From: a virus
Reading direction: 5' to 3' (one strand)
Length of the DNA: 64,000 nucleotides
Virus record (IMG/VR): IMGVR_UViG_3300045988_079583
Coordinates: 50,885-114,884 of that record
The notes beneath the pieces were generated by a model that did no database searches, was not told where the DNA came from, and saw only the letters and a list, made by a program, of their open reading frames with translations. A program made the position numbers and the translations under genes. Shown piece by piece: positions 2,288 to 63,420 of the stretch (positions are counted from its first letter, which is position 1; each line of letters starts with the position of its first letter).

Positions 2288-2517
2288 TTTCTACAATTTT
2301 AAAACCGTTATTAATTAGATATTCTTCTGGAGCAAACTGTAATTCAAAGAACCTTCTTAGTGAATAATTCTTTTTCTTTACAGAAAGATTTTTCTTTTTT
2401 ATAGTAATCGGTTTACTAGAAGAAAAGTATTTCTCCTCCATTAGAGCCGCTCCCCAACTCCAAATTTGATAAATCGAACTACAATAGATAAACTTATCAT
2501 GTGTATATACAATTTGC

Positions 2518-2991
2518 TTATCCTTCTCGTAAGTCTTCCGTAAGGTCATTGTAAAACACTTTAATAGTTTTGAAAATAAATGAATTTTTTCTTGAATTAT
2601 AGCAATCGTTCCAGCTTCTACTCTGATAATGAGTTAAAAGTTCAGAGGCTTTTACTCCTGTATAAACATTTTTGCAGAAGCTACTATCGTCCTCACAGTC
2701 ACAAGAGTTTATTGTATACTCTCCTATACCTATGGCATAATGCCAATGACTACCTATTATTTCGCTAAATTTACCTCCAAGAAAATAATCTTCATAGATT
2801 ATAACTTTGAATTTAAATTTATCTCTACTAAGTAGCCTAGCTAAACAATATGCTATATAACAACAGCCTCCAGCATTAATGTCATACTCCTCATCCAGAA
2901 ACTTACAAAGCTTATTAAGCCTTTCCGCTAGAATCTCCTGCACTTCCGGTGATTTCGAGTTTAATCTCTTCTTTTGCCTTTTTAAACTCAT
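2518..2991 (-). CDS. hypothetical protein
   Basis: 157-aa ORF. Confidence 0.4.
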   Translation of the reverse strand: MSLKRQKKRLNSKSPEVQEILAERLNKLCKFLDEEYDINAGGCCYIAYCLARLLSRDKFKFKVIIYEDYFLGGKFSEIIGSHWHYAIGIGEYTINSCDCEDDSSFCKNVYTGVKASELLTHYQSRSWNDCYNSRKNSFIFKTIKVFYNDLTEDLREG

Positions 2992-3214
2992 CTAAGTACT
3001 GACCTAAAGTTATAATTTCATCTTTTCCGAATTTCTTTCTAGTTGCGTAGTTTATACAACGTTCTACAGCAGCCTCTAGTGAATAGCCATAGCCTTCCAC
3101 TTTAAATTCTTTTCTCGGATTTTTCCCTCCAATATCATATAGCAGCTCCAAGTCGAAACGAGGAGAAGCATCATTGATAGGGGTTAGCCTATAAAAGGAG
3201 CCTTCAATTATCAT
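2915..3214 (-). CDS. hypothetical protein
   Basis: 99-aa ORF overlapping neighbours by short stretches. Confidence 0.35.
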   Translation of the reverse strand: MIIEGSFYRLTPINDASPRFDLELLYDIGGKNPRKEFKVEGYGYSLEAAVERCINYATRKKFGKDEIITLGQYLDEFKKAKEEIKLEITGSAGDSSGKA

Positions 3215-3581
3215 TTTCTATTTCTTTAATAAGATTTTCGATGAAGTCTGCTCTGTTCTGTATAGCTTCATATAGTTCATCTAGACTTTCAGCAATATAG
3301 ATAGCACAATAAGTATATTGGTTTATACACGGGACACTAAACTTATTTACATTATCCTTGTTCCAAGAATATAAACACCCAGTGCAATCTGGGTCTCCAG
3401 CCTCATAACCGCATTCGTTGCATAAACAGCAATTTCTAAGACTCCCAAATCCAGTTATCCTAGATAACGCCTCATGCCAGTAATCATCGTCCTCATGCGC
3501 ATTGCTTTCAAGTTCCTCTCTTGTAATACTTCTATACTTTTTTACAAGACGTCTTGCAGCGTCTAAATTCTTTATTTGCAT
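3204..3581 (-). CDS. hypothetical Cys-rich protein
   Basis: 125-aa ORF with clustered Cys (CCLCNECGYEAGDPDCTGC). Confidence 0.4.
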   Translation of the reverse strand: MQIKNLDAARRLVKKYRSITREELESNAHEDDDYWHEALSRITGFGSLRNCCLCNECGYEAGDPDCTGCLYSWNKDNVNKFSVPCINQYTYCAIYIAESLDELYEAIQNRADFIENLIKEIENDN

Positions 3582-13411: not shown

Positions 13412-14047
13412 TTACTCTAGAAGTATGCCGTACTTCCATATGTAGCCATAAGCATGGGTTATTTTATGATTGCAACAATCAGTGATATGTCTTTTGCAAT
13501 TAACAGTTTTTGCTAGACCATTATCTACAAGCCATTGAGCTGCTTCTTCTCTTCCCCAGAAGTGCTATATATAATTGCCAGCCATATCAAATTGATCAAT
13601 TTTCTTAGCAGACCCACCTCTGATTTTAATGTCATGAGCTTTCAATACTTTTCTTACAGTATCATCACTACATCCCACTTTCTCCGCAACTTTTTTGCAA
13701 GTATATCCCATATTGTACAGTTCGATTATCTCTTGATAATCATATAACTATGTTCCGTCACCACCCTTAGTAGCATTATAGCCTTTGGAGCCATAAGTTT
13801 CCAACTCTTTTATCCAATATACCTCTCTTTCTGAAAGTATGTTTTCGTCCTTTACATATTCTAATTCCTCTATTATAAAGTTTTCAACTCCATATTTATT
13901 CATAGCATCATATAATGGACGTTTTTCACATCTTTCTTTTCGAGAATCCTTGCAGTGTTCCTAAAATCTTTCCTATATAGTAAAGAGGGTTTTACCAACG
14001 TATCTTTTATTGTTGATAATATTTGTAATGCAATAGATATATCCCAT
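13412..14047 (-). CDS. GIY-YIG homing endonuclease (I-TevI-like) containing 3 in-frame TAG codons
   Basis: hand translation MGYIYCITNIINNKRYVGKT...REVYWIKEL...GYNATKGG; invisible in ORF track because TAG splits it; terminates at TAA. Confidence 0.7.
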
Positions 14048-14134
14048 ATCATAAACTATTTATAACATTATTAATAATTGATTGAATTAGCTTTACCCAA
14101 AACACACCACGTGGAGGTTTCAATCTTGTGTTTC

Positions 14135-21334: not shown

Positions 21335-21967
21335 TTATTTGTATTTCCATACATAACCTCCACAGGATTTTGCTTTTCCTACACAGCAATCAATTATATG
21401 ATTACTAGCAGAGTGTTTACTCTTTGATTTTCCTACCTCAACTAGCCAATCTGCAGCTTTCAGAGAACCAGGAAATTCCTAAATTTTGTTTCCAGCTTTA
21501 TCATACTGAACAACAATTCTACATTCACGTGCCTATTTATTAGCTCTTCCATCTATTCCATGAGCTTTTAACACCAAATACACAGTTTCCACTGAACAGC
21601 CTATCTTTTCTGATACCTCTTTACATAAATATCCTAAGTTATATAATTCAATAATTTCCTTGTAGTCATACAATATCTTCCCATCACCGCCTTTAGTAGC
21701 ATTATACCCATCTTTGTAGGACTACAATTTGTTTATCCAATATATTTCCCTATCAGATAGGGAGTTATCATCCGCTTCCTCTAGGCATTCAACTATGAAG
21801 TTCTCAACCCCGTACTTATTCATAGCATCGTATAACGGCCTCTTTTCACATCTTTCTTTCTAACTATCTTGACAATGTTCTTTAAAACGCGCTTGTGGGT
21901 TTTGTGTAGTCTTTCCTACATAGCGCTTATTGTTAATCAAGTTTGTAATACAATAAATATATCCCAT
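21335..21967 (-). CDS. GIY-YIG homing endonuclease paralog containing 4 in-frame TAG codons
   Basis: hand translation MGYIYCITNLINNKRYVGKT...DREIYWINKL...GYNATKGG; paralog of 13412-14047; terminates at TAA. Confidence 0.7.
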
Positions 21968-22051
21968 AATTTTCTTTTTTTTATTAAACATTTAGTTTTA
22001 ATCCAGAGTTCACCACGTGGAGGTAGTTTAATACGAACTCCTGGACCTAAC

Positions 22052-22556
22052 GGGAGTCGAACCCGTGTCCAAACAACCCTTGTTACAAGGATAACGTGCG
22101 TCTCATTTTTATTACATCAGCTAGTGAGTTCTAGCATTTAGATAGTTTTCATAGAAGAGCTAGATTCTTTGCAAGCGGACTCATCTAGCACCTTTCCGCT
22201 TAACTACACAACAAACTATCAAACTTAGAGGACCAGGGGTCTCTTCTCTACCACTCCATTTACGTTGGAGAACGCCTATTTGTAACCTATAGATAGGTAA
22301 TGGAGAATTTCAGCTTTACTAACCTTTGGCTTTCAAGTTAAGTACAGTGGCTCTATCATCCTTCTGCTGTACACCTCTTCTGTTTCTAGGTCTTCTCCGT
22401 TAACCCGACTCGATTAATATTTCTATTAATTAGCCACAGCTCACGCTGCCATTCTTACTTCGCTATAAGTAGCAATTATTGTTTTCCTTCGTTTAGAGAG
22501 ATTGCGCTCTACACGTCCTTATAATTCGTAATCGCCTGTCAAATCCAAGTAGGCCC
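22052..22556 (-). ncRNA. candidate tmRNA-like (ssrA-like) structured RNA
   Basis: about 500 nt without ORFs; 3' end is a T-arm (ACGGG-TTCGACT-CCCGT) plus TAGGTCC strand that can pair with GGGCCTA about 500 nt upstream; 5' region TGGGCCUACUUGGAUUUGACAGGCG resembles conserved tmRNA 5' end GGGGCUGAUUCUGGAUUCGACGGG; internal short ORF ends ...VRMAA-TGA. Confidence 0.3.
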
Positions 22557-24244: not shown

Positions 24245-24317
24245 TGGACACGCAGGGACTCGAACCCTATCTTCCGGTGTGCAAAACCAGCGCTCTAGCC
24301 ATTTGAGCTAACGGCCC
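24245..24317 (-). tRNA. tRNA-Ala(UGC)-like; acceptor stem does not pair as read
   Basis: good D arm, anticodon arm CTGGT-TTTGCAC-ACCGG and T arm, but 5' GGGCCGT is not complementary to 3' CGTGTCC; possible pseudogene or my misreading. Confidence 0.45.
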
Positions 24318-25276: not shown

Positions 25277-25558
25277 TTATTTCTCAGCCTGTTTAGAAAT
25301 TTCTAATGCGGCAGTTTCATCACTAATACATTCAGTAGGACATGGAATAATATTTCCGTGAATTTCTCTATGGCAATTGGCGCAGACTAGTATACATTTG
25401 TCCAATTCCTCTTTAACACGTTTCCATGAACGTGTATAACCCTTTGCGGATATTCCGAAGTCCTTTTCTTCTGAATTAATATGGTGAAACTCCAAAGCCC
25501 CAACATATTTGTTATATCCACAACATTGACACTTTCCACCTTTGTAAGCAATAGACAT
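25277..25558 (-). CDS. HNH endonuclease (standard code)
   Basis: CQCCGYNKYVGALEFHHIN...ILVCANCHREIH. Confidence 0.6.
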   Translation of the reverse strand: MSIAYKGGKCQCCGYNKYVGALEFHHINSEEKDFGISAKGYTRSWKRVKEELDKCILVCANCHREIHGNIIPCPTECISDETAALEISKQAEK

Positions 25559-25717
25559 AAGTTTTACTTTATCTCTTCTTCTCTATACTGCCTCTGCTTC
25601 ACATTTAAGACATTTCCATTTGGTTCTATTACCATCTTTTCGCTCTGCAAATTCAGTTTCTCCGTGAATCTAGCAGAACATAACTTCTCTCTTATTCATA
25701 ATATTACTTTTTAATAG

Positions 25718-25789
25718 CTGGGGCACATGGACTCGAACCATGATTCTTTGATTAACAGTCAAAAGTTCTGACCTTTGAACTATACCCCA
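25718..25789 (-). tRNA. tRNA-Asn(GUU)
   Basis: anticodon stem TTTGA/TCAAA, loop CTGTTAA; U1-A72. Confidence 0.75.
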
Positions 25790-26043
25790 ATAGTTAATTT
25801 CTCTCCACGACATAGATAAGTACCCCTTTGGTACTTACCTCTAGTAGTATTTCTTACTCAAATCCTCTATAGGGAGGTGGGATAGTTCCAGAAACTAACC
25901 ATGTGTAGCTTTTAGAACTCTGTTCAAAATACCACTTAGCAGCTTTCTTCACAACATTAATTACCTTTTTCATAACATTAAAGTTTAAAATTGTTAATAA
26001 TTAATCTAATTCAGAGCCACAAAAGGAGTTTAGTTGCGGAGGT

Positions 26044-26113: not shown

Positions 26114-26119
26114 ATATTG

Positions 26120-26193
26120 ACTCGGTGGTCAGATTCGAACTGACGAACTAAGGATTTGCAGTCCTAGCCATTAAACCACTCTGGTACACCGAG
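26120..26193 (-). tRNA. tRNA-Cys(GCA)
   Basis: acceptor CTCGGTG/CACCGAG, anticodon loop CTGCAAA. Confidence 0.65.
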
Positions 26194-26197
26194 ATTG

Positions 26198-26278
26198 TTC
26201 CGATTAAAGGATTTGAACCCCTGACCTCCCGCTGATGTTTTGGATGCGGACGCTCTAACCAGACTGAGCTAAATCGGA
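26198..26278 (-). tRNA. tRNA-like gene with canonical acceptor, D and T arms but a 13-nt anticodon loop (ATCCAAAACATCA); anticodon unassignable
   Basis: acceptor TCCGATT/AATCGGA, D arm GCTC/GAGC, stem TCCGC/GCGGG flanking a 13-nt loop, T arm AGGGG-TTCAAAT-CCTTT. Confidence 0.35.
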
Positions 26279-27754: not shown

Positions 27755-28308
27755 AATCTAGAGTGGGATTCGAACCCACGAAACACGGTTATTTAATATT
27801 TTTACTGCCATAATTTTCAGTCTAGGAATGACAATTAGGACAAAGGATTTGCAGATTCTCTATTCTATTATCATTACTAATACCATTAATATGGTGTAAC
27901 TACAAAGAAATAGGCTTATTGTTCCACTATGTTATCCCACATATTTCACATTTACACGTCTTATATCCCTCAGAAATTAACCGTTTCTTTAATCTATCAG
28001 TATTCTAATAAGTTGAGTTTTCAACTAGAATCTCTTCTATAGGTATTTTCTTCTGAGAAGGCTAAGAAGTTCCTTTGTTCCATCCCTAGCCTTTAAAATG
28101 GGAATAATCTATATTAAGAGAATCCAATTTCTTATGAATTACTCTTATATTTCCTGAATTTGCTGGCCTCTACATAAGACGACAAACATCAGAAAATGTA
28201 AAACACTATTTAACAAAGTGTTCTATTTCTTCCTTAGAAAATTCTGGGTATTTATTCATATTTCTTATTTTTTATAACCGTTCCCTTAGACCGCTCGGGC
28301 ATCTAGAC
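27755..28308 (-). other. split tRNA-like gene: 5' half (28270-28308) and 3' half (27755-27789) separated by HNH endonuclease gene inserted in the anticodon loop
   Basis: 5' half GTCTAGA-TG-CCCG..GGG-A-ACGGT; 3' half ACCGT-GTTTC-GTGGG-TTCGAAT-CCCAC-TCTAGAT; acceptor and anticodon stems pair across the insertion. Confidence 0.45.
27789..28259 (-). CDS. HNH homing endonuclease with 8 in-frame TAG codons (156 aa)
   Basis: hand translation MNKYPEFSKEEIEHFVK(TAG)CF...CKCEICGIT(TAG)WNNKPISL(TAG)LHHINGISNDNRIENLQILCPNCHS(TAG)TENYGSKNIK-TAA. Confidence 0.65.
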
Positions 28309-42494: not shown

Positions 42495-42782
42495 GTAACG
42501 GTTGTTCTTATCTTGGGAGTAGGAGACCTAAGTCTCCCAGTATGCACAATTGTTTCTCAACAACCTGCACCACTATGTACGATAAAAGAAGATGAATTAT
42601 CCTGTGCCTACAATCATTTAAGATTGTCTTCGATTGTTAGTACAATCTCACAATACTTTGCCTTATCTCACGATAAGACACCTCTATTCATAAGAGATGC
42701 TCTGCATTAGTCTCAGGGCGTACCCATTATAATCTTTAACTGCAACAGAGTCTACAAGTAGTTGTAGTCCTCAAATACCAAG

Positions 42783-42853
42783 TTCCCCATTCTGGACTCG
42801 AACCAGAATCTCCTTCTTTAGAGGAAGGCGCAATAGCATTATACTAATGGGGA
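42783..42853 (-). tRNA. amber suppressor tRNA, anticodon CUA, tRNA-Gln-like (copy 1)
   Basis: acceptor TCCCCAT/ATGGGGA (U1-A72), anticodon stem CCTTC/GAAGG, loop CTCTAAA (anticodon CUA reads UAG), 4-nt variable loop, T arm TCTGG-TTCGAGT-CCAGA. Confidence 0.65.
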
Positions 42854-43575
42854 AATCCTATCTTGACAACTAGTATAAGATAGGAGATTATTTAGTATGT
42901 TTTCCAGACATACAACGTTATCAACGTTCACTAAATTCTGAGGTAGCTAATCTCAAAACTTGCGAATAGATTCGAGATGGAAAATGACGCCTTATGAGCG
43001 TCTCTCTTACTATCTAGCCTATATCTATCTGATGGCTTACTTCAGGCAACTTCCAATATTGCATACGAATACTTATAGGTGATATACTTTGGTCTACCAG
43101 CATATCAGTGGTACTTTGTAATATTGCCATAAGTGACCATTCATATGGCTCAATCCTCTTGTAATAGTGTTCAAGTTTGCGAATATACACATTACAATCG
43201 TAGCAGTTATTTTCGGATATTGGGTTCTTCTGCGTAACCCGCTTTTTGTTACCTTTTTATAGGCAAATGTTAGAGTAAATAATCATTGTAGTATGTGTTA
43301 TAAAACTCATCCTACTGGCGATTTTTTGAGAACTGGAGAAAGTCGGAAAATCGGCTGTCTTTTGCGTGGACAATTTCTCTCAGCCCTTACCATATTTTCA
43401 CGTGCAACAATAGTCCCAATCTACATTAGAACCACATTACTTAATATAATACTAAAATAAAATAACTACGACGAATTGATTTTGAAGTTTTTGTTTTGTT
43501 TTGTTGTTTTCTCCGTTAACCAATGGTCCGATGATGGAGTTCATGTGGGTATCTTATTTTGAAACCCATAATACC

Positions 43576-45244: not shown

Positions 45245-45316
45245 TGCCCTATGGTGTAATGGTCAGCACAGATGACTCTAAATCATTTAGTCTGGGTTCG
45301 AATCCTAGTAGGGCAA
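45245..45316 (+). tRNA. amber suppressor tRNA, anticodon CUA, tRNA-Gln-like (copy 2)
   Basis: TGCCCTA-TG-GTGT-AATGGTCA-GCAC-A-GATGA-CTCTAAA-TCATT-TAGT-CTGGG-TTCGAAT-CCTAG-TAGGGCA-A; U1-A72 and D region nearly identical to tRNA-Gln(UUG) at 30391-30462. Confidence 0.75.
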
Positions 45317-45333
45317 CTCCAAAATTAATAGCT

Positions 45334-49414: not shown

Positions 49415-49624
49415 TGAGAAAGTTTATTTCAAACCTGGGGATTGTGTTACTTTACGGTAGTGTAAGGTAATGCATTCTCCAGTAATGCTTGTTCTGAGAA
49501 GAGAATCAGCATTATTTAAAGATAACCAGGGATTGCGCGGACTTAGATGTAGATGGTTTACTGATTCTGGACTGATGCAAGAAGCAGTATTTAATACAAA
49601 AGACTTAATTAAAGTAGAAGAATA

Positions 49625-50839
49625 ATGGCGAAAATACAATTTGATCCAGAGTTAATGTAGCATATCAAGACTATATATGGAGACGCAGAGTTAGACGGAA
49701 GAACTTTACAACAGTTGCATTAGACTTGGCAAAGTAATCCGAACTCTATTAGAAATACTGCATAGTAGAAGAAAAGAAGTGCTGTGCCAGCTATACAACA
49801 AAAACCTATATTAGGATTAAAGCTGTCTACTCCTACTATTCCTAAGAAAATAAATGCACCTTAGCAACAAATTCAAAACGACGACTTAAGAGGAGTCTAG
49901 GGGTTTGGTACGGCATTTAGAGAAGCCAGAAAGAGAGGACTAACTCAATTCAAATGGGGGAAAGGAGTGTATGGAACATAGTTAGCTAATGGAAAGAAAG
50001 CAACAGTAGAGGTAGGAACTCCAGTAATGAATAATCCCTATGTTACATATAGTCAAGACGGAAAAAGAGCTACTACGTACCAAAATCAAGTAGACTAGGA
50101 AACTGGAGAGCATACTGGAACTATCCAAGAACAATGGATAAAGCCGCCTACAACTAATATGTATGGGCAGAAACTAACTCCAGAATAGCTCAAAAATTAG
50201 AGAAGTTGGGAACATATACCAAAGGCAACTGCTAGATAGCAACGAGTTAAATATCAACAAGGAGGAGCAATGGCTAATTAGGAAGAATTACAAAAAGCAT
50301 TTATGGCATACTTAATACAGGATGCCGCAGCACAAGGAATACAATTACAATCTGAGTAGGATTTAGAACAATATGCTCAGCAATTAGGAGAAGACGGAAT
50401 TAAAGCCAAATACCAGGAATTTATGCAAAAAATGCAAGGTGGGGTTATGGCTAGATTAGGAGCTAAGCTTGAGTACTATAAAAAATTAAAAGGAGTTTGC
50501 CCAGAAGGGGAAGAGCTTGTTTATTTTAAACAAGGAGGGAGAATATGTAAAGCCTGCCAGAAAGCTTAGAAAGGTGCCAAGGTAAAAGGTAACGAGGTAG
50601 ACAAATTTAAGAAAGGAAGAGCACAGTATAAGAAAGATATGAAATCAGCGAAAGATGAAGCTTCCAGAGATTCTATATCTATCAATAAGTATAATGATTA
50701 GGAAACCATGTCTAATAAAGGACATAAAGGAAACTTCCAAAAGGGAAAATGGGTTCCTGATAGAAAGCAATATACTAAAAAGGATGCTTGTGGCTCTAAA
50801 ATGAAAGTAAGCAAGTGTGGCTCTAAAATGAAGAAGTAA
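49625..50839 (+). CDS. hypothetical protein, first gene of TAG-recoded structural module (404 aa, many in-frame TAG)
   Basis: single frame open from ATG 49625 to TAA 50837-50839 if TAG is read through; Gln-rich; no TAA/TGA in frame. Confidence 0.5.
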
Positions 50840-50866
50840 GAAAAGATTGTCGAATGTTAATGATTA

Positions 50867-51433
50867 ATGATTATGAATGTATTTAACTATAACACTTTAA
50901 CTAAATAGTTAGAAATAAATGAACCAGAGATTCTTCTAGTTAAAGAGTTCAAAGCTTTACTACAAAGAGATAAATCTGTGGAAAAGGATAGAGCAATTAG
51001 AGAACTATCATACATTTATTTAGCTATTGATTGGAAGAGTCCGTATAGCTAGTACTCTGAATATGAAAGGCACGATGAAGCAATTAATGATTCTGGATTA
51101 ACAGAATCAGAATTTAATGATCCGATATTTAGGGAAGCATGTAGAAAATATAGAGCATTATAGGACTCAAATAAATCAATTAAATTATTAGAAGCTGCTA
51201 GAAGAGCTGCTGACTAGTTTATTGATTACTTCGATACTATTGTAGACTTAAATGAACGTGACACTAATGGAAAGCCAGTATTCTCTGCTGAGAAAGTAAT
51301 GAAGGAAATGGCTAGCCTTCATAAAGTTCACGAAGAATTAATTACATTAGAAGATGAGGTTAAAAAAGAACTTACTGAATAGTCTACCGTTAGAGGAGGG
51401 GCTACAGATGGTTTTGATCCTGGAGAATTTTAA
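50867..51433 (+). CDS. hypothetical protein upstream of terminase (possible small terminase subunit), TAG-recoded
   Basis: 188 aa with several in-frame TAG; position immediately 5' of terL. Confidence 0.35.
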
Positions 51434-51435
51434 TT

Positions 51436-53796
51436 ATGCCAAGAAAGAAAAAGATATTACCTGATGAACTATAGACTATAGTAGATTAGGTAAGAGAAAA
51501 AGAACATAAAGAAGATGCTGTAGAGGCAAGAGAGCTAGTATAGAAAATAAGAGAAGAAAGGGTCAAAAGTGCAGACTATTGGGATGTCAAGAAAGGAGAC
51601 AAGATAGATGTTTTTGACCCTACTTTGTCTTATGAGATAACTGGCTATAGACCTATTGATGAAACGCATGGTTTGGACTTTAATCCCGAATGGTTCACCG
51701 AAACCAGAGAAGTATACAGAAAGACTGGGAAGTATTGTCCCTACTTAAAAGACAGTAAGAGATACAATGAATTTTGGAAAGAGTAGTACAGAAGATGTAA
51801 ATATGGAATGACAGTTAATGGTTATACTATTACTGGAGATAACTATTTCTTCTTAAATTTCTATTAGCTTCCTATTATTGATGATAATAAAGCATCCGGT
51901 GAAGGAACTAATAGTGACTTCCCTATATTCTTTGCATCCCATTACATGTTCTTCCATTACTTACAAATGGCTAGAGTACTACATAGACATGCAGCTTTAA
52001 TGAAGGCTCGTTCAATCGGATTCTCAGAAATAAATGCCTCACTATCCGCTCGTATGTATTCTGTAATTAGAAGAAGTAGAGTAATGATTACTTGCTTTAA
52101 TGATACCTTCCTTAAAGGTACATTTAGTAAGTTTGATAATGCTCTAACATTTTTAAATACTTGCACAGGTGGAGGATTCTTTAAGCTTCGTCTAATTGAC
52201 CAGGATTTAAGAAAGAAGTCTGGTAAGTAGGTTAAAGTAAACGGATAGTTTGAAGATGTTGGATTTAAATCAGAAGTAGTAGGAATAAATGGAGCTAAAC
52301 CATCTAATATTCGTGGAGACCGTGTTGACTTATTAATATATGATGAAGCAGGGTCTTGGCCAGGATTAGATACTGCTGTGGTACAAGGACAAGAACTTTG
52401 TGAAGTCTAGGGTAAGCCTCGTGGAACAATGTTGTTTGGAGGTACTGGTGGTGATATGGGTGCTCCATTAGCAGGTCTTAAAAAGATTTACTATAATCCA
52501 AAAGCTTACAAAGTTCTTCCCTTTAGACATAATTATACTCAAGATGGGACTACTATTGAGAGTGGATTCTTTATTCCATATTTTGTACAGTCTTTGAACT
52601 CCGAATACATGGATCATAGAGGTGTATGTAATACCGTAGAATATAAGAAGTATCTGTAGGAAGAAAGAGATAATCTATTAGCAGTACCCGATGACTATTT
52701 AAAGAAGTGTGCTGAACGTTGTTGGAATGCAGAAGAGGCCTTCAATCTAGAAGGTGTTAACAAGTTTAACAAAATTCTTATTTCTGATCAATTAGCTAAT
52801 ATAAGACTAAAGAAAATAGGTCCCAGACCAGAATGTGGTTATATAGATTACTTCTATAAAAATAATAAACACACTGCTGATAACATTGATGGATTTAAGT
52901 GGATTCCTAATACTAAGGGAAAGGTAAAGATTCTGGAACATCCAGTATGGTCTGACCTATATAAGGAGTAGATGGATAAACTTAGATAGGAAGCAGAGGA
53001 AAGAGGAGAGGAATTTGAAGCACCTGTATATAAAGAAATGCATAATCTTTATATTGCAGGAATAGACGGTATTGATATAGGAGCTAATTAGACCTCGAAG
53101 GAAACTAAAGATCCTTCTGACTTCTGTATAACTATTAAGAGAAGGGCATTTGGTATGAGTGAGCCATAGTATGTAGCAATGTATAAGGACAGACCTGGAG
53201 ACATTCGAGAGGCTTACAAAATAGCTATGTGTTTACTTAGATACTACAACTGTAAGGTAAATATAGAAGCAACTCGTGTTGGTATGATTACCTGGGCTAG
53301 AGAAAAGAAATGTTTGAATTACTTTATGAAACGTCCTAGAGCTACTCTTACTGATGTTAAAAATGGAACTACTAAATAGTATGGAACTCCAGCTACTAAA
53401 ACTATTATAGAACAACACACTGATCTAACTGCTGCGTTTGTGGAAGATTATTGTCATACTATATGGTTTGAAGAAATGTTGGAATAGCTTACTGGATATA
53501 ATGACGAGAATAAAGGTAAGTTCGATATTATAGCAGCTATGGGTATGACAGAATTAGCAGATGAAGAGTTGTCTGGAAGATAGCCTATAGTTGTGGAAAA
53601 AGAAGTTGAATTGTTCAGGGATTTTGGTTATTATTACGATGAGAGAGGAATAAAAAGATTTGGAGTTATACCAACTAGAGAAACTCCAGAATTAAATATG
53701 CAAGACGACGAATACGATGACCCATACAGAATTGAAACAAGTGATCCTAGAGTATATGAGAGACTTATACCAAATGGAATATATAGGCGGACTTGA
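51436..53796 (+). CDS. terL: terminase large subunit, TAG-recoded (786 aa, about 18 in-frame TAG)
   Basis: Walker B-like VDLLIYDEAG; nuclease motif YIAGIDGIDIGAN...DPSDFCITI; ends TGA; track shows only fragments (51946-52230, 53179-53379, 53593-53796). Confidence 0.7.
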
Positions 53797-54054
53797 GATT
53801 GAGGATTTGAATCCAGTTGGTTACAAAATATCTTTTAACTTTGACAGGTCTGAGATGCCATTAGTAATCATAGCTGATTTACCCGATGATGAATTTCTGC
53901 CTTTTATTAAAGAAGAATTAAGAAGTAGGAAGTTATAGAGAGTTAAGTATTATAACGCCACTAAGCTTCCTCCAGAACAACATAATACATGTTATGAAAG
54001 AGAAAGAATTGATAGACAAAACAAACGAGGCTATTGCGGAACTTGTGTATGATA
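53774..54054 (+). CDS. possible small overlapping ORF with 1 TAG
   Basis: extends track ORF 53717-53938 through TAG to TGA; overlaps both terL end and portal start, may be spurious. Confidence 0.2.
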
Positions 54055-56168
54055 AATATGAGCTTTAGAAAGCTTATAATTATTATAATGGTAAAAGAGA
54101 TCCAGAATAGTTTCGCTATCTTGAAGAGAATTTTGGAATAGGCAGTCCTACATCAGTAGAATTTACACCACTACTTAAGAAGCATGTAGATGCTTTAGTA
54201 GGGGAATATCTAGGAACTCCAATACTCCCGAAAGTCTCTTGCAAAGATTCAGATACTATCAGTAATATAACCAGAGAAAAATAGCTAGAGATAACTAAAG
54301 GAATAGTTAAGTTTTTAAAAGATCACTTAAGTAATGCTATCTTAAGCTTTATTGACGGAAAAGATATTACTGATAAAGCTGTAAAGACTCAGCTAGATAA
54401 GGTTATATAGGATATTGATTAGTCATTCATTTCTCAGTATGAAATTGCTGCGCAGAACATTATTCACTACCTAATGCAATCTAGGGAAACTGATCTTATT
54501 ACTAAGTTGCGGTAGTTATTAACTGACTTACTAATTACTGGATACACATTCTTTAGAGTAAAGTCTTCTTTCTCCGGAACTAATGTGGAGATAGAGGTTC
54601 TTAACCCGTTAAATACGTTTGTTGATAGAAATCCAGAATCTCCATATGTCAAGAAATCATATAGAGTTGTTATTAGAAAATGGATGAGTAAAAGCCAAAT
54701 ACTAGCTAAGTATGGTAAAGAAATATCTAGAGAAGACTTAAAGAGGTTAAAAGATGAATGGAGAGCAGATGATTCTGCTGCTGTATACAGAAGAGTTTAT
54801 GGAGATGTTTGTACAGTGGTTAATGAAGATCAAAATCATGAGACCATTCCTGGGTATCCAGATAATGAATATAGTGCTCATAGATTTTAGTTAATTCCGG
54901 TCTACGATGTAGAGTGGATAGAGACTGATGATGATTTCAAAATGCAGAGATACAATACTATAAGGATAGGAGAGGAAATCTATATTCTTAGAGGATTAGA
55001 CAAGACTGCAATGAGGTCTAAAGACGATCCTAACTCTTGTTCATTATCAGTAAATGGAGTTTATTTTCTAAATCGTTCTCAGTAGCCATATTCTTTAATA
55101 CTTAAGTGTGCACATCTACAGGATAGATATGACTTACTTAACTATTACAGAGACAACTTGATAGCTAATAGTGGAACCTCAGGAGTTATTATGGATATGT
55201 CATTACTTCCTACTAACTTAGGAGTACATTGGCCAGAAAGAGTATAGAAATGGCTAGCTTATAAAAAAGCTGGTATTCAGTGGGTTGATACTACTTAGGA
55301 GGGTAGAAATGACAATGGAAACGCTCCTTTAAATACTATCTTTAATGGATTTGATGACACCCTTAAAGCGTAGGCTGTATAGGCTATTGAGTTAGCTATT
55401 CAATCAGTAGAATAGACTACATCATCTATAACTGGAGTATTTAGGGAAAGACTTAATGGAATAGAGACTCATGATGCTGTAACTAATATTAAGCAAGGAG
55501 TCGCTAACTCTTATATAGTAACTAAACACTATTTCCAACAAATGGACTTGATAACTTGTGAAATATTATTAGATAGTCTTAATTAGGCTAAAGTAACTTA
55601 CAAGAAAGGGTTAACTGGAACTATTATATTGGGAGATAAGTATTAGTAGATATTTACTGCCCTTCCTGAATATTTCACAATGACTGATTTTGACATTCAT
55701 ATAACCTCCAGCACTGAAGTTATGGAAGATTTATAGACTATTAAAGCTATGATTCCGGAGTTCCTTAAGAGTTAGCAAATGGATGCTGGTATAGTTTTTG
55801 AAGCATTAACAGCTAAGAGTTTGACAGACTTAAAGTACAAGGTTAAAAAAGCTATGCAGGTTTAGAAAGAAGAGAACAATCAATTACAATAGTTGTAGTA
55901 GAAGTTGGAAGAAACTTCATAGCAAGCACAACAACTACAATAGGAATTGGAGAAAGCTTAGTAGAAAATAGAAAGGCTAGACGAACAAAAACTTGGACTA
56001 GAACAGTAGAAGATGCAACTAGAGTATAAGGTTAATTGGCTTAAAGCTCAGTCTGATTCTACTTACAAAGATAGACAAATGGATATTGAAGAGAAGAGAA
56101 CTGAAATAGAGTTAGCATAGCTTCATGACGGAAATCCATATAACGATAAAGTAAGACAAATACATTAA
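53994..56168 (+). CDS. portal protein, TAG-recoded (724 aa)
   Basis: position after terL; portal-like N-terminal region (AYNYYNGK...), size; C-terminal Gln-rich coiled coil generated by TAG codons. Confidence 0.55.
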
Positions 56169-56169
56169 T

Positions 56170-57039
56170 ATGGCTACAGCAGGTACAATAGTATATAATA
56201 AAGATTAGCAACAAATATATCCCATTTCTCATGCAGAGGTGGTAATTAGTAATGCTTCTGGAAGTAAGTCAGACGTGGAAGACAACCTTATAAAATTATG
56301 GAAAAAGGTCTCAGAATTAAGTGGAGACTAGGAAGCAGCTAGTAATATCATGGTAGTAGTTACTTATTGTAAAACAAATACCAGAGATGAATCTGAAGTA
56401 AGAAAGTTATCATCATGGAGTGATATTTTTGAACTACCAGACTCAGAAAGACCATATGTTTGGAAGAAAACTTTATATACATATAAAGGAGACACAGCTA
56501 AACTTAATGAGATTTACGAAATTGTTGCTACAGATATTGCTGAAAAAATTCAGAATATCTATATTGCAAGATCAACTGGGGTTGCTCCAGTTATTACTTA
56601 TCCAATACTAAAGGATGGATATGGAGATCCTATATTAGACTCTGAAGGAAATACTTAGGAAGATTTGACTGCCTTTGACAATAAATTACCAGAAGGCTGG
56701 TCAGAAACTCCAGTTAGTATTGGTCCAGCTACTCCATATGTATTTATATCAACACGTAAGAGAGTAGAAGGATTATGGAAAAGATATTCTGAACCAGCTC
56801 AATACGGTAGGTGGGCATTTGACAGTTAGTTAGAGTTACGATATACCATTACTTCTGGAGATAAACCAGCTGTTAATACTACAAGTGACGATCCTGGAAG
56901 TTAGTGGTCTAGCGATACTCCAGATAATTTTACTGGAAAAATGTGGATGATTACTGCAACATCAGTAAACGGAGTATTGAATAGTGATGAAAATAACGTT
57001 AGATGGCACGGTCCTCATTTGATGTCAATTATACAATAA
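56170..57039 (+). CDS. hypothetical structural-module protein, TAG-recoded (289 aa)
   Basis: open from ATG 56170 to TAA 57037-57039 with TAG read-through. Confidence 0.45.
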
Positions 57040-57770
57040 TGGAATTTAGTATTGATATACATACCCAGATTACTGGGGAAATAACTATTGAAGACTTCTC
57101 TAAAGAATATGGATAGTATATTGATGAAGATTTAGAAGTAGTAACTTCTTACGACTCTTATAAGTATAGTGAGAGTGCTACTCTAAATACTATCATCAAG
57201 GTAAGTATAGGGGATGCCACACTAATAGATGTCCTTTTAAATGACCATACAGAAGATTTAGATTCATGTACATTTAAAGTAAAAGAGGATGGATATTATG
57301 TGGTAGATCATATAATACTTCCTAATATGAAGTGGTATGAAAATTCATCTGATGAATATAAGGAATACTACGAAACTATCTATGTTACAGATGGGGAGAA
57401 ACTATATAAAGAAGTAGAAGGAGAGTTAGAAGAGTGTACAGTAAAGGAAATTCTAGAAAGAAACATAGAAGGCACTACTATCAAGAAATGTAAGGTCGAT
57501 GTATTCTTTACTGGGAATTTACAATAGTGCTATATTAATTATTGTAAAAAATTATTTGATGGTCTCCTAAATAAATGTGTTACCAATGAACATGAGGCAG
57601 ATATTTTTGCCAGAGATTTTATTTGGATGACTCTCAACATTATAGATTATTTAATAGGCTTTAAACAATTCATGGAAGCTGAAAGGTTACTAGCAATGTT
57701 CCGCACTTGTGGAGGATTCTGTAATACTCGCTATCATGGACATAAACATATAAGTTGTGGATGCTCTTAA
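57039..57770 (+). CDS. hypothetical structural-module protein, TAG-recoded (243 aa)
   Basis: TAATG overlap with previous gene; ends TAA. Confidence 0.45.
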
Positions 57771-57925
57771 AAGAAAGGCTATTAAAAGGTATGAAGAGTT
57801 TCTTGGAAGAATTAAGAAAGGATATAGACCAGATTATCAAGATATTTTGAATTTAATCTGTTTTATTAATCTACCTGTAAAACTAGATAATCACGAATTT
57901 ATTAAATAGCAACTATTAAATCATA

Positions 57926-59515
57926 ATGATACAGCCTATTTACACTTCGGTAAGCAATGCTGATATAAAGCCTTGTGGAAAGAAAGGACATTTAATAAAA
58001 AGTGAGCCTATACCACTTCTAAGAGATAATTACTTAGGAGAATATAGAACAGAACTAGAAAGAGCTAAGGTTAGAAAAAACTTAGGAATTGCTGATGAGT
58101 AGAGTCTTCTTTGGGGAAATATTAGTGGAACCATAGAGGCTTAGAAAGACTTGGTTTAGTATATTGAACAAAAATGGACATATACTAGCGATGTTGCAGA
58201 AAATATTAACACCGTAAAAGATGCATTAGACTATGCATTATTTTTTATTAGTTAGTATGAGGCTAATACTGAGGAAATAGAAGAGATAAAGGTTGATATA
58301 AGTAATATTAGGACTAGTATTTAGGTATTAGGAGAAGATCTGAAAAGAGAGATTGATACTAATAGGGAAGGACTAAATAACTTATCTTAGGATATAATCG
58401 AAATTAATTAGGCAATATCAGACCTCAACACTGCTATAGAAAATATAGATGTTGATAAGAACATTCTTAATTGGATTAAAAACAACCTTTAGAACTCTAA
58501 GACTGTAGAGATAAAGGAGGATAATACTATAGAAGTCATTCTTTCTAAGTAGGATAATAATGCTATTCATTTAATCGAATAGGAATTACCTCCTACAGAA
58601 GAAGGAGAGGAGCCTTCTACTATAACCCTTCCAGGAATTTATGTAAAGAATCTAGAACCTTAGTTAGAAGAAGCTTAGAAATCTATAGGAGAAGTATAGA
58701 AAGCTCAAGAAGAGACTAATGAAAAGGTTAGCACTAATAGCGAGAGTATTACAAATATCTAGACTAGTCTAGAAACTATAGCTACCTATTAGACAGAACT
58801 TCCTGATGATACAACTTCTACTGTTATAGAAGGTACTACCGTTGAAAAATTAAAAGGGAAACCATTTAATGAAATCATAGATACTTTACTATTCCCAACA
58901 GTAGTTAGAGATTTAATATATCCATAGTTGTATTATAGCTTTGCTTCCCAAATTGTGGAAGTAGGAACTGCGCTACTAACTCCAACCTTAACTTTCGTAA
59001 AAAATGATGCAGGAGAAGAAACTGACAGAGAAGAAGTCATTACTTATAACGGTTCTCCTATAGAGTCTGTTACATATGATTCTATTGGGATTTATACTCA
59101 TTCTGGTACAGTGAATTATGCTGCTGGAGAATACTTAGTAAACAATAAGGGAGAAGTTACAGATAAAAGGGTGGAAGCTGGTTCTATATCAGCAACTGCA
59201 CAAGTAACAGCTACTTATCCTTGGTATTCTGGAAATACTGATGGATTGATAAAATAGTCCCTAGTTCCATTTAATTAGGCTTCTGGCACTATTACATTCT
59301 CATTAAGTGGTAAGGCTATTATAAAATTACCAGGAAGTAATACTCAGCTAAATTCCTTCACAGTAGATGGAGGATTGGGATATTTGAATGTCGATTTAAA
59401 TGGTTGGGAAGCTTCTACTGAACAAATAAATGGATTCCCATATAAAGTATGGACTAAGAAGGATACCTACTCTTCAGCACTGCCTCACCAAATTAACTTT
59501 ATTCTATCACAGTAA
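57926..59515 (+). CDS. tail fibre-like protein, TAG-recoded (529 aa)
   Basis: long Thr/Asn/Glu-rich protein with coiled-coil segments, many in-frame TAG; ends TAA. Confidence 0.45.
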
Positions 59516-61383
59516 TGGCATTTAAATATACAGGTGATGCTACCCTAGGTGTTGGTTTAACCGTAGAAACTCCGAAGCCTCTGGATAATAGAACAGTAGT
59601 TGATAACCTAGAGGAGCTATATTCTATTCCAGAGAGATATGCTTATTAGGGCATGACCGTATCTAATATAGATAACGGAAATATTTATATGCTTATTGAT
59701 AAGTCTAAGATTAAATATAAAGAAGGATGGAAAGCATCTTATGAATCTATCTAGATAATAGCTTGTACAGAAGCTGAATATAAAGAATGGTCTGCTAATA
59801 CTACAGAAGATTTTAAACCAATAGATGAGAATAAAACATATCTTCACGCTGAAACATATTATTATATATATGAGGACAGCCTAGACGATAATTAGTTTTA
59901 CCTATCAGCAGAATGGGGTAAGAAAATAGAAGAGTAGTTAAAGTAGAAAGCTCTTAATACTACAGTTGTATAGATTAGAAATGATTTAGACTAGACTATT
60001 TAGAATCTTTCTAAGTATGCAACATTAGAAGAATTAACTGCTAATTATGCTCCTAAGGCGGACCTAGATTTGGAAGATCCAGAATCCCTTTTATCTAAAG
60101 CTCTATCTAACCACTATACTAAACAGGAAACTGATGATATATTTGTTACTAAGGAAAGTCTTAGAGGGGAAGGAATGGAAGGAGATGATTTCGTCTTTGT
60201 TACTAAAAAGCAATATGACGAAGATTAGTAGGCTATCTAGAGCGAATTAGATAAGACTTTAAAAGTAGATAGAGATGGTTCTCTGGAAAGCATTACTGTG
60301 GGACAGATAAAATCTCCAGTGATTGAAGGAGAGGATTAGCTAGTAGTAGATGTTAAATCAGACGGATTGTTTGTTGGAGAAGATCAATTTGCTATGATGT
60401 CTGATGTTCCAAATTTAGTTACATTAACTGAAGAGGAATATTTAAAACTGGTAGAAGATGGTACTCTAGAACCTGACACATACTATTATGTGTATGACGT
60501 GACAAATGACGCTAAAGTCTATATTACTAAAGAGTATCTAGATTAGAATTACCATACTACTCATTAGTATTAGTCATGGGTAGCTACCAACTACTACTCA
60601 AAATCTCAGATTGATGAGATCGTTGCTGGTTTACAGAAACTTGGGAGCTACGTCACTACAGAAGATATTAAAGCATATTACACTAGTCAATAGGTAGATG
60701 AAAAGTTTCTTACAAAAGAGAATGCTCAATCTACATACGCTACCTAGCAGTCGTTAACTGAGCTGTCTGGATAGATAGCAGAAGAGTATGTAACAAAGGA
60801 TAGTTTGAGAGGAGATTCTCCCGAGACTGGTGATGATGACTTTATATTTGTTACTTAGAATAAATATCAATAGGATTAGACTGCTGCTTCCCAAGAATTT
60901 AATACTAAGCTATTAAAATCAGAATAGATAGAAACTTCTGACATTACTATTTAGAAAATTGTAGAAAAAGAAGTACAATAGGGAACAACTGAAGAAAGTC
61001 CAGGAGATATAGTAATAGAGCAAACTATTGAAAGCTCTGTTAATCTTACTACTAAAGATAATAGGTTATTAGCATCAGGTAAACAAGTTGCTCTTATTGA
61101 AGAAGTTCCAAAATTAGTATGTTTACCCTAGACTGATTATGATAACCTAGTTGAAAATAATAAGACAGAGAACGATACTTATTACTGTACTTACGGAGAA
61201 AAAGATATATAGGATACAGGATATGTTAGAAGCGAATATCTTACTGAAAAGTACTATACTAAAGCAGAGGTAGAAGCTTTGATACAGGAAGCTGTAAGCG
61301 AATTATAGAAAAAGATAGATGCAATATAGCCTGGTTCGGGCAGTGCATCAGTAGATGAATCAAATGAACAATTAATATTTTAA
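59515..61383 (+). CDS. tail fibre-like protein, TAG-recoded (622 aa)
   Basis: TAATG overlap with previous; repetitive coiled-coil-like segments; ends TAA. Confidence 0.45.
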
Positions 61384-61388
61384 ACAAG

Positions 61389-61598
61389 ATGGGAACAATT
61401 TATATTGACGGACAGTTTAAAAGCTCTGCTAAGCCTGTAAAAGTTGTTGGTGGCAGTGTAGGAGGGTCTGGAGTAGATCCTGATACTCTCAAGAACTATG
61501 CTACTAAAGCAGAACTTCAGAAAGCTGTTGAGGACTTAACTGCTTCCATAGAAGGAATAGATCATGATGTAGTTGAAGAAACTTTAATAATATAGTAA
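61389..61598 (+). CDS. small Gly-rich protein
   Basis: track ORF 61389-61595 extended through terminal TAG to TAA. Confidence 0.35.
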
Positions 61599-61599
61599 T

Positions 61600-63420
61600 A
61601 TGGCAGCTATCAAATCTATAAAGGTAGGAGAAATTACATACGACTTAAAGGCTACTTATGATGGTTCTGGCAACAATATTGCCGAGACCTATGCTAAATC
61701 TAGTGCTATTCCGACTAAAGTATCATAGTTAAGTAATGATAAAAACTACCTAACAGAACATTAGGACATTAGTGGTTTAGCAACTAAAGAATAGATAGAC
61801 GAAAAAGTAGACAAGGAATTAGGAAAAGGTCTTTCTGAAGCTAATTATACTGAATTAGAAAAATAGAAGCTTTAGGGTGTAGAAGATGGTGCAAATAATT
61901 ATGAACACCCAACTACAGCGGGATATAAACATATTCCCTCTGGAGGAGCAGCAGGATAGATTTTAACTTACTCTAATGATGGTACTGCCCAATGGGCAGA
62001 TTCTAGCACTAAGTTAGATTAGCAATTCTAGGCACTTAATGAGGCTTGGGAAGAACTTCAGAAAGCTTAGCAAAATTTAGATAGCTAGGTAACAGCTATG
62101 ACTAGTAACGCAGATCTTTACTCCTATGGAGTAGAATGGGATATAACTGTATCTTCTCCGGTTCTCACCAGAATTGGAAACCCGTTACTGCATAAATCAC
62201 TTCCTATTCAATCTGCTTATAGAGGATGCGTAGCCAATGGAGCTAATATAAACTATTTCTTACATCCAGATAATTGGGCTTATAAGGAAGACGGTACTAC
62301 TCCCTCTGTGCTTGATGGTAGTGAAGGAACTGTTAGGGTTAACACTCCTAAGTTCTATGGTAAGTCTGGTTCCAATGGAAATAAAAGATGGGTAAGAGAA
62401 TCAACTGTTAAGATAGACGACTCTTGGGTTGAAATACCGGAATTGTTAATTGATGCATATAGAAGCACAGTTGATACTACAGTATCTGCAACTCCAAAGG
62501 CTGTATCAGTAGTTAATACTACTACAGCATTTAGAGGAGGTGGAAATAGAGCATAGTTCGACGAGTACTTGACTACTGAGCTGGAGACTAAAGATATTTT
62601 CAGAAGCGACTTAGGAAAACCAAGAACGAATATTTCCAGAGCCACAATGAGAACTTATGCTACAAACGCAGGTTCTGAATTACTATGTTACGAATATTAC
62701 AAGTGGATATTCTACTGGAATTATGTAATAGAATATGCTAACTTTAACTCTTAGGCTACATATGAGGCAGAGCTTACTGCTGATGGCTATCATTAGGGAG
62801 GTCTTGGACCCGGAGTTACGGATTGGAGTAATTCTGCCACAAGTTGGTCTGGATATAACGGAACTTATCCTCTTACTCCATGCGGTCACTGTAACGATAT
62901 TGGTAACTTCACAGGAGTTAAAGATTTAGTTATCCCAGGATGCACTGCAACAGATGGGACTAGTACAGTAGCTACTCATACCTTTAAAGTACCACGTTGG
63001 AGAGGCTTTGATAATCCATTTGGAGACATTTGGACAAACCTAGATGGAGTAGTTATTCAAAGAACTGCAGCGAATGAAATAAGTAGTGTATATACTACCA
63101 CAGATAAAGCGGAGTTTACTGACGTAATTGGCAACAAGACTATAGCCGGATACGAGGTAGCACAAGATGGATACATTAAAGAGTTTGATTTAGGAGAGAC
63201 AGCGGAGATTATACCATCTTCTTGTACTGGAGCTTCAATTACTACTTATATGTGTGACTACCACTATTGTAACGCTAGCTCTACAGCGCTTCGCACGCTG
63301 CGGGTGGGCGGCGGCGCGGGTGTTGGCGGCAGTGCGGGTCTCGGCTGTTTCGGTTCTAACTTTGGCGTCGGCCTTGCCGATTCCCATGTCGGGTTCAGAA
63401 CTCTAAATAGAGTATCTTAA
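61600..63420 (+). CDS. tail fibre / receptor-binding protein with C-terminal DGR variable region, TAG-recoded (606 aa)
   Basis: open from ATG 61600 to TAA 63418-63420 with TAG read-through; C-terminal 35 aa (VGGGAGVGGSAGLGCFGSNFGVGLADSHVGF) encoded by VR1. Confidence 0.6.
63298..63393 (+). repeat. DGR variable repeat 1 (VR1)
   Basis: 96 nt, GC-rich and nearly adenine-free, aligns with TR; about two dozen differences all at TR adenines. Confidence 0.7.

Follow-up and report, generated by a model that had tools for sequence, protein, structure and literature searches.

The window analysed here, 64,000 nt of the IMG/VR record IMGVR_UViG_3300045988_079583 (positions 50,885 to 114,884 of that record; all coordinates below are those of the window), belongs to a large phage in which TAG encodes an amino acid. 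ARAGORN identified two tRNAs with a CTA anticodon and about 28 more, mostly on the minus strand and between 14 and 38 kb. One tRNA-Cys gene of this array is split into two halves, with an HNH homing endonuclease gene between them. The features of the split locus, together with an intact tRNA-Cys paralogue and the two suppressor tRNAs, are as follows:

28277–28308, minus strand: tRNA-Cys 5′ half (tRNA positions 1–31), GTCTAGATGCCCGAGCGGTCTAAGGGAACGGT, made up of the acceptor strand GTCTAGA, U8 and G9, the D arm and the 5′ anticodon-stem strand ACGGT
27790–28276, minus strand: insertion of 487 nt in place of the ancestral anticodon loop CTGCAAA, delimited by comparison of empty and filled alleles
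28260–28276, minus strand: A-rich leader of 17 nt upstream of the HNH start codon, TATAAAAAATAAGAAAT
27789–28259, minus strand: HNH homing endonuclease gene of 156 codons plus TAA (Pfam PF01844, phrog_10822)
27755–27789, minus strand: tRNA-Cys 3′ half (tRNA positions 39–73), with the same sequence as in uninterrupted alleles
26119–26193, minus strand: intact paralogous tRNA-Cys(GCA) with the anticodon stem TAGGA/TCCTT (ARAGORN; Rfam, 57.4 bits)
42782–42853, minus strand: suppressor tRNA, anticodon CTA (ARAGORN, Rfam)
45245–45317, plus strand: second suppressor tRNA, anticodon CTA (ARAGORN, Rfam)

Read on the minus strand from 27789 to 27755, the 3′ half runs ACCGT-GTTTC-GTGGG-TTCGAAT-CCCAC-TCTAGAT-T, which supplies the stem strand ACCGT, the variable loop GTTTC, the T arm, the acceptor strand TCTAGAT and the discriminator U73. 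The HNH open reading frame starts with ATG at 28259 and stops with TAA at 27791–27789, the final A of the stop codon being the first base of ACCGT. The original prediction had described tRNA halves on either side of a TAG-recoded HNH gene whose TAA overlaps this stem strand, and these structural statements all hold. Its figure of about 480 nt for the insertion is near the 487 nt that separate the two stem strands, but the gene is not nested in the anticodon loop: it replaces the 7-nt loop altogether. The G + C content of the insertion is 29%, against 36% for the window.

Default ARAGORN did not call the interrupted gene at 27755–28308, and the Rfam tRNA model (RF00005) gave no match at the locus, the insertion being the reason. 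When introns were allowed, ARAGORN joined the halves into a single tRNA, c[27754,28308], across 480 nt of intervening sequence, forcing the anticodon ‘AAA’. The joined halves fold into a cloverleaf. They are identical to the arms of an uninterrupted 75-nt tRNA-Cys(GCA) found in 19 relatives, a match far beyond chance; the 5′ half agrees base for base with one of these alleles (L001:41–72) and with 18 others. As regards the isotype, U73 is present, but the 7-nt loop CTGCAAA of the orthologues, with its U33 and GCA anticodon, is missing from the window allele.

Recoding is unevenly distributed over the window, with 13–28 in-frame TAG codons per gene in the plus-strand block 49613–63420 and 0–2 in most minus-strand genes (1–44000). 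The plus-strand genes are presumably late or structural, and a similar early/late recoding layout has been described for gut phages (bioRxiv 10.1101/2021.08.26.457843). Among the named members of the phage collection, the human-gut phage csAssE-Sib is the best relative, with 41.7% amino-acid identity in one protein, and from its name we tentatively place the phage among the crAss-like phages. A megablast search of the late region against GenBank phages returned no match.

The window holds several other RNA features. A tmRNA lies inside the tRNA array at 22039–22556 on the minus strand (RF00023, 56.3 bits, gathering score 47, E = 2e-19), for which ARAGORN predicts the tag peptide VQQKDDRATVLNLKAKG. 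A RAGATH-14 RNA (RF03145, 166 bits, gathering score 149) at 42882–43054, also on the minus strand, directly adjoins the suppressor tRNA at 42782–42853. The anticodon loop of a tRNA-like gene at 26198–26278 (minus strand; 51.6 bits with the Rfam tRNA model) is 13 nt long, AUCCAAAACAUCA. ARAGORN called this gene only with introns allowed, as Trp(CCA) with a 6-nt intron; the tRNA may be decaying, or the extra bases may be a mini-intron or an enlarged loop. At 24245–24317 (minus strand), Rfam alone, and not ARAGORN, reports a weak tRNA (39.5 bits); its anticodon is UGC (Ala) and its acceptor stem pairs poorly. A tRNA-Val was not found in the window.

The protein encoded within the split tRNA matches Pfam PF01844 with 27.1 bits (cut-off 21.4) and phrog_10822 with E = 8e-47. 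Its CxxC...HH...N...CxxCH motifs are intact, and C104, C107, H123, N125, N135, C140, C143 and H144 are invariant in the HNH alignment. Among solved structures, only a marginal match to a McrA-type HNH was obtained (E = 0.036). The reading frame contains eight in-frame TAG codons, the highest density of any gene in the window, and no in-frame TAA or TGA. The TAG positions align with the invariant Q of HSQTE and with the Q of GQxWNK in homologues, and TAG is therefore read as Gln. These codons probably delay translation of the HNH gene until the phage suppressor tRNAs act.

Three other homing endonuclease genes are present in the tRNA block, all on the minus strand: a paralogous GIY-YIG pair at 13412–14059, which matches Pfam PF01541, and 21335–21991, assigned from its near identity to the first copy, and another HNH gene at 25277–25834. 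They have 4, 4 and 2 in-frame TAG codons, respectively, whereas most neighbouring early genes have none, and nucleases seem to be preferentially recoded. Borges et al. described recoded ‘Agate’ phages in which an intron endonuclease in an early gene is preferentially stop-recoded (bioRxiv 10.1101/2021.08.26.457843). The likeness lies in a nuclease that is dense in reassigned stops within an otherwise standard-code early region and should be translated only after the suppressor tRNA appears. Their case differs in that TGA is reassigned to Trp and the nuclease resides in an intron of a protein gene, whereas here TAG is reassigned to Gln and the insertion in the tRNA gene is intron-less.

Alleles of the locus were gathered by blastn of GenBank phages and by searching IMG/VR for exact matches to the 5′ half. 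An uninterrupted tRNA in relatives had been proposed as a check of the original prediction, and 19 related contigs carry an intact tRNA-Cys(GCA). One of them, the human-gut contig MT837398 found by blastn against GenBank phages, matches both flanks but lacks the 480 nt; at the insertion point it has an ordinary 75-nt tRNA-Cys(GCA) with the same arms as the window halves and the loop CTGCAAA. The uninterrupted gene scores 59.1 bits with RF00005 (gathering score 29). The IMG/VR scan returned 18 contigs, 17 uninterrupted and one (059915, loci L019/L021) interrupted in the same way as the window, giving a tally of 19 empty alleles, two GenBank contigs included, versus two filled. All 19 empty alleles read ACGGT-CTGCAAA-ACCGT; the window and 059915 read ACGGT-[487 or 496 nt]-ACCGT. 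Two of the empty alleles have a compensatory A5G/U68C change in the acceptor stem, which identifies the uninterrupted gene as a functional tRNA in this group.

The empty locus L017 and the filled locus L019 come from different metagenomes, yet their flanks are 98.7% and 99.3% identical and the insertion is essentially the sole difference between them; downstream of the tRNA, L017 is 99.2% identical to the window. The insertion of L019/L021 is the same as that of the window save for an in-frame 9-nt tandem duplication, which leaves the reading frame open. The two assemblies that carry it are only about 95% identical overall (window versus L019 genome), so it is not an assembly artefact. The insertion is therefore genuine and recent and occurs in two or more recombinant backgrounds, and its presence or absence at one site between near-identical genomes is the polymorphism expected of a mobile homing endonuclease gene (HEG).

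Identity between the window and L019 is mosaic, with a sharp boundary at about 28460, roughly 150 nt upstream of the interrupted tRNA: it is 99–100% from about 28460 down to 22042, and 63–90% from 28461 up to about 31700. A tight co-conversion tract around the HEG was considered and dropped, since the block of high identity extends about 6 kb downstream and is not specific to the HEG. A metagenome scan with the 5′ half followed by a non-C base yielded no further insertions, and only two unrelated uninterrupted tRNA-Cys genes with the loop TTGCAAA.

All seven bases of the ancestral loop CTGCAAA have been replaced, and at most the final A of the insertion could be ancestral. There is one G and no C in the first 20 nt of the insertion, and neither G nor C in the last 15 nt. 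With junctions so poor in G and C, no cut-and-join yields GCA or a canonical 7-nt loop with U33 and a purine at position 37; all prefix/suffix joins of the junctions were tried, and none gave either. The original prediction had entertained UAA-like or AUA-like anticodons, but the gene was originally a tRNA-Cys(GCA), and that reading drew on A/T-rich bases at the junctions that are part of the inserted cassette. ARAGORN's ‘AAA’ anticodon, in the loop UUAAAUA, was likewise rejected as an artefact of forcing a 7-nt loop, the result being non-canonical. The identity set of CysRS comprises U73 and the GCA anticodon, which this loop would not match.

The original prediction had also allowed for a functional tRNA that matures by unconventional processing or splicing, which could involve a non-group-I ribozyme, a protein endonuclease and ligase, or a mechanism of the bulge-helix-bulge (BHB) type. 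That both halves are perfectly kept, with the acceptor, D and T arms and a closed anticodon stem appearing in the minimum free energy fold of the 555-nt RNA, and that ARAGORN accepts the locus as an intron-containing tRNA, would fit such a route. It founders on the missing loop, however, as joining the flanks cannot rebuild GCA or a canonical loop and the only loop on offer from ARAGORN mismatches the CysRS identity elements. Rfam found no ribozyme, the filled allele is rare and recent, and the predicted stem is a continuous 8 bp without BHB features. Archaeal BHB introns and split tRNAs are similar in having a ribozyme-free interruption in or near the anticodon loop, but they need the bulge-helix-bulge and an EndA-type splicing endonuclease and keep all mature bases; the window has neither the BHB nor the loop. 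Specifically, two 3-nt bulges with a 4-bp helix between them were absent from the predicted fold at the window junctions, and we know of no BHB-type tRNA introns in bacteria or their phages. A spliced, functional tRNA is thus extremely improbable, and this part of the original prediction is effectively excluded.

The only non-coding sequence in the insertion is the 17 nt ahead of the ATG; none follows the stop codon. The original prediction was therefore correct that a group I core cannot be accommodated, and the comparison with true HNH-bearing tRNA introns reinforces the point. Rfam returned no intron match in the insertion at E ≤ 10, and a search for the group I R and S motifs (AGACYA/AYAGTC) found none there, while the controls were positive. 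A U precedes the insertion, which is trivial, and its end has no terminal G, nor any G in the last 15 nt; the joined exons, moreover, have no anticodon, contrary to what a group I intron would leave behind. The RF00028 model detected the positive controls L022 (E = 2e-4) and L068 (62.9 bits), although its sensitivity is limited, a likely intron in L029 having been missed. In that locus (IMGVR_UViG_3300021400_001148, L029 2300–2837), a tRNA-Arg(ACG) gene has a 462-nt ORF-less intervening sequence with a core-like element, AGACTATACA, that Rfam did not report at E ≤ 0.1.

True introns do occur in the family. We found 51 IMG/VR loci that encode homologues of the HNH protein, and in 10 of these the HNH gene lies inside a tRNA-Leu(UAA) gene. 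The intron of L022 occupies the classic site between U34 and A35 of tRNA-Leu(UAA) and ends in G, and about 190 nt after its ORF stop are recognised by Rfam as a group I core (E = 2e-4). R and S motifs were present downstream of the ORF in five of the HNH-bearing tRNA-Leu(UAA) insertions (L022, L024, L033, L034 and L040). The HNH proteins of these five share 37–47% full-length identity with the window protein and a common C-terminal LCPNCHSQTEN motif, and their genes resemble the window gene in anticodon-loop location, tRNA orientation and phage tRNA-array setting. The difference is that L022 keeps every loop base, so that splicing restores UAA, whereas the window element has no ribozyme and the loop is deleted.

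HNH genes in tRNA-Leu(UAA) introns of Bacteroidota are also on record (PMC13011429). Such kinship, extending probably to another tRNA's anticodon loop in L023, could mean that the window HNH gene arrived in a self-splicing group I intron and that a later deletion took away the core and the loop bases, again leaving a dead tRNA; the insertion is indeed at the usual intron location and in the orientation of the tRNA. A deletion of this kind would have to remove both a 5′ part (P1–P2) and a 3′ part (the core) precisely up to the ORF, and it sits poorly with the clean empty site of the near-isogenic relative L017. Nor was an intron-bearing tRNA-Cys seen among the 21 viral-contig alleles or in the metagenome scan. 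We regard an intron remnant as quite improbable, even with these family ties.

A different tRNA insertion was noted in L048 (IMGVR_UViG_3300045988_099999). At 2422–3010, a tRNA-Met(CAT)-like gene has a 516-nt insertion directly after CAT, consisting of 86 nt and a PD-(D/E)XK endonuclease ORF (PF11645, 58 bits), with a terminal G and all loop bases kept. Rfam and the motif search detected no group I core in it and no empty-site relative was found; it may be an almost ORF-only tRNA intron. At 571–641 of the same locus there is a type-P1 twister ribozyme match below threshold (32.3 bits, gathering score 67, E = 0.0014).

We conclude that, very probably, a free-standing HNH HEG recently invaded and inactivated one of the phage's two tRNA-Cys(GCA) genes. 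Inactivation by endonuclease invasion was the other alternative given in the original prediction, and it is borne out by the empty site in near-isogenic relatives, the loss of the loop, the lack of a ribozyme and the redundant second tRNA-Cys. The HEG cassette, leader and ORF, sits exactly at the former anticodon loop and has left both stem strands and all other parts of the tRNA intact. The second tRNA-Cys(GCA) gene, 1.6 kb downstream and with different stems, buffers the loss of the interrupted gene and makes it tolerable. A second copy is usual among relatives with sufficient flanking sequence: in the DNA fetched for the uninterrupted relatives, a second tRNA-Cys(GCA) was seen 1.6–1.9 kb downstream at 13 of the 19 loci.

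In the mechanism that we propose, the enzyme or a close ancestor would cut or nick uninterrupted tRNA-Cys DNA near the part coding for the anticodon loop, and repair would copy the HEG into the break. The founding event was probably illegitimate or imprecise, costing the few bases of the loop, and in co-infections a filled allele would later pass on the HEG through homologous gene conversion. The insertion would destroy the enzyme's own target site and thereby shield the carrier from self-cleavage. Cleavage of the empty allele and immunity of the filled one would be in keeping with established homing-endonuclease biology, as exemplified by T4 SegB. The interrupted gene would be transcribed with the co-oriented tRNA array but give no decoding tRNA, leaving the phage to depend on its second tRNA-Cys(GCA) and that of the host. 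HNH protein would appear only once the CTA suppressor tRNAs read the eight TAG codons as Gln, tying the nuclease to the recoded (late) phase. A scan around the locus found fewer promoter-like sites than in shuffled sequences and no convincing promoter or terminator of its own, and the HNH gene is probably transcribed with the tRNAs.

Some observations count against invasion and inactivation. The replacement of exactly the 7-nt loop, with both stem strands spared, is tidier than a random illegitimate insertion. The first three nucleotides of the insertion, TAT, can pair with the last three, ATA, which is predicted to extend the anticodon stem to 8 bp; this could hint at selection on RNA structure and in that respect speaks against a plain invasion. 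The tRNA halves show no decay, but none is expected because the insertion is too recent, its flanks being 99% identical to the empty allele. Nor was the HEG found at another site that could have served as donor: protein-pattern and degenerate DNA-pattern scans of IMG/VR returned only the same allele (L019/L021) and distant relatives, and the closest HNH relatives at other sites are no more than 47% identical along their full length, or 74% along a C-terminal fragment.

One truncated HNH gene, in L032 (IMGVR_UViG_3300045988_135603, 2800–3263), is 74% identical to the C-terminus of the window protein. It lies amid several tRNA fragments and ends inside the start of an intact tRNA-Cys(GCA), and the region resembles a graveyard for the remains of endonuclease and tRNA genes.

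Free-standing members of the family are found next to tRNA genes. The homologue gp94 of Rhodococcus phage Dorin (L072 1430–2019) has 0-nt spacers to tRNA-Glu and tRNA-Gly, and gp149 of Gordonia phage GodonK (L073 1407–1994) overlaps the next tRNA by 10 nt; both are 41–45% identical to the window HNH. Given such spacers and overlap, tRNA processing must define, or even truncate, their mRNAs. In L076, a free-standing homologue lies between tRNA-Leu and tRNA-Asp. The family thus occurs in tRNA arrays in three configurations, of which that of the window is the third and the most destructive.

A functional parallel is provided by T4 SegB, a GIY-YIG enzyme that recognises tRNA-gene DNA through a TψC-coding motif and drives the inheritance of its region (PMC2330249). 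SegB, Dorin gp94 and GodonK gp149 resemble the window gene in being intron-less selfish nuclease genes in a tRNA array, variably present among close relatives. Their genes sit between tRNAs and leave them intact, however, whereas the window gene sits inside a tRNA and destroys it. The F-Tfl enzymes of T5 are reportedly also free-standing homing endonucleases of phage tRNA clusters. Genes in pieces are said to arise by HEG insertion elsewhere, as in Aeromonas phage Aeh1, where mobE reportedly splits nrdA, and in the so-called ‘fractured genes’, host genes reported to be split in this way. These share with the window an intron-less HEG within a host gene that is left as two co-linear pieces. Where protein genes are split, subunit assembly or split inteins preserve their function; the window tRNA, in contrast, is without its essential anticodon, and its function is unrecoverable.

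The close packing of these HEGs and tRNA genes bears on one more reading, in which decoding has been lost but the tRNA halves serve the HEG as a frame for mRNA processing and stability. The HNH mRNA would be released from the array transcript by RNase P and 3′ processing as a tRNA-shaped RNA of 555 nt, stabilised by its paired ends; a tRNA-like domain would then close an internal ORF, in a topology like that of tmRNA, and late translation would follow through TAG suppression. In the predicted fold the ends pair as a full acceptor/T-arm minihelix (z = −4.3 versus shuffles), although the tRNA arms by themselves would give such a z-score. The HNH gene points the same way as the array, has no convincing promoter or terminator of its own, and has relatives that abut or overlap tRNA genes so that tRNA processing must define their mRNA ends. 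Against this, there is no sign of selection: the insertion happened once and recently, and its youth alone explains why the halves still match those of the empty alleles. At the split locus, the tmRNA model (RF00023) gave only an 18-nt T-arm match (16.2 bits, gathering score 47), and the acceptor stem has no G3:U70. We consider an exapted tRNA frame unlikely as an account of the locus, but it is compatible with plain inactivation rather than exclusive of it, and is plausible as a by-product. If true, it would be a natural ‘tRNA-scaffolded mRNA’ and would give HEGs packed among tRNAs a way to obtain defined, protected mRNA ends.

The locus is best described as a freshly broken tRNA gene, and not as a new splicing mechanism or a new type of tRNA intron, splicing being very unlikely. 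What is new is a configuration of a known kind: a HEG whose family is associated with introns stands free, with no intron around it, at a tRNA intron site. For annotation it carries a warning, since tRNA finders that allow introns will list loci of this kind as intron-containing tRNAs and give them a spurious anticodon (here ‘Phe AAA’). The locus is also a further instance of the heavy recoding of nuclease genes that recoded phages show. With both an empty-site allele and an exact 7-nt footprint available, invasion of the redundant tRNA-Cys gene by the HNH HEG provides a snapshot of an endonuclease gene at the canonical intron site without its intron. Such HEGs can move independently of ribozymes, and redundant phage tRNA genes can absorb the damage, which is relevant to models of how endonuclease genes join group I introns and part from them again.
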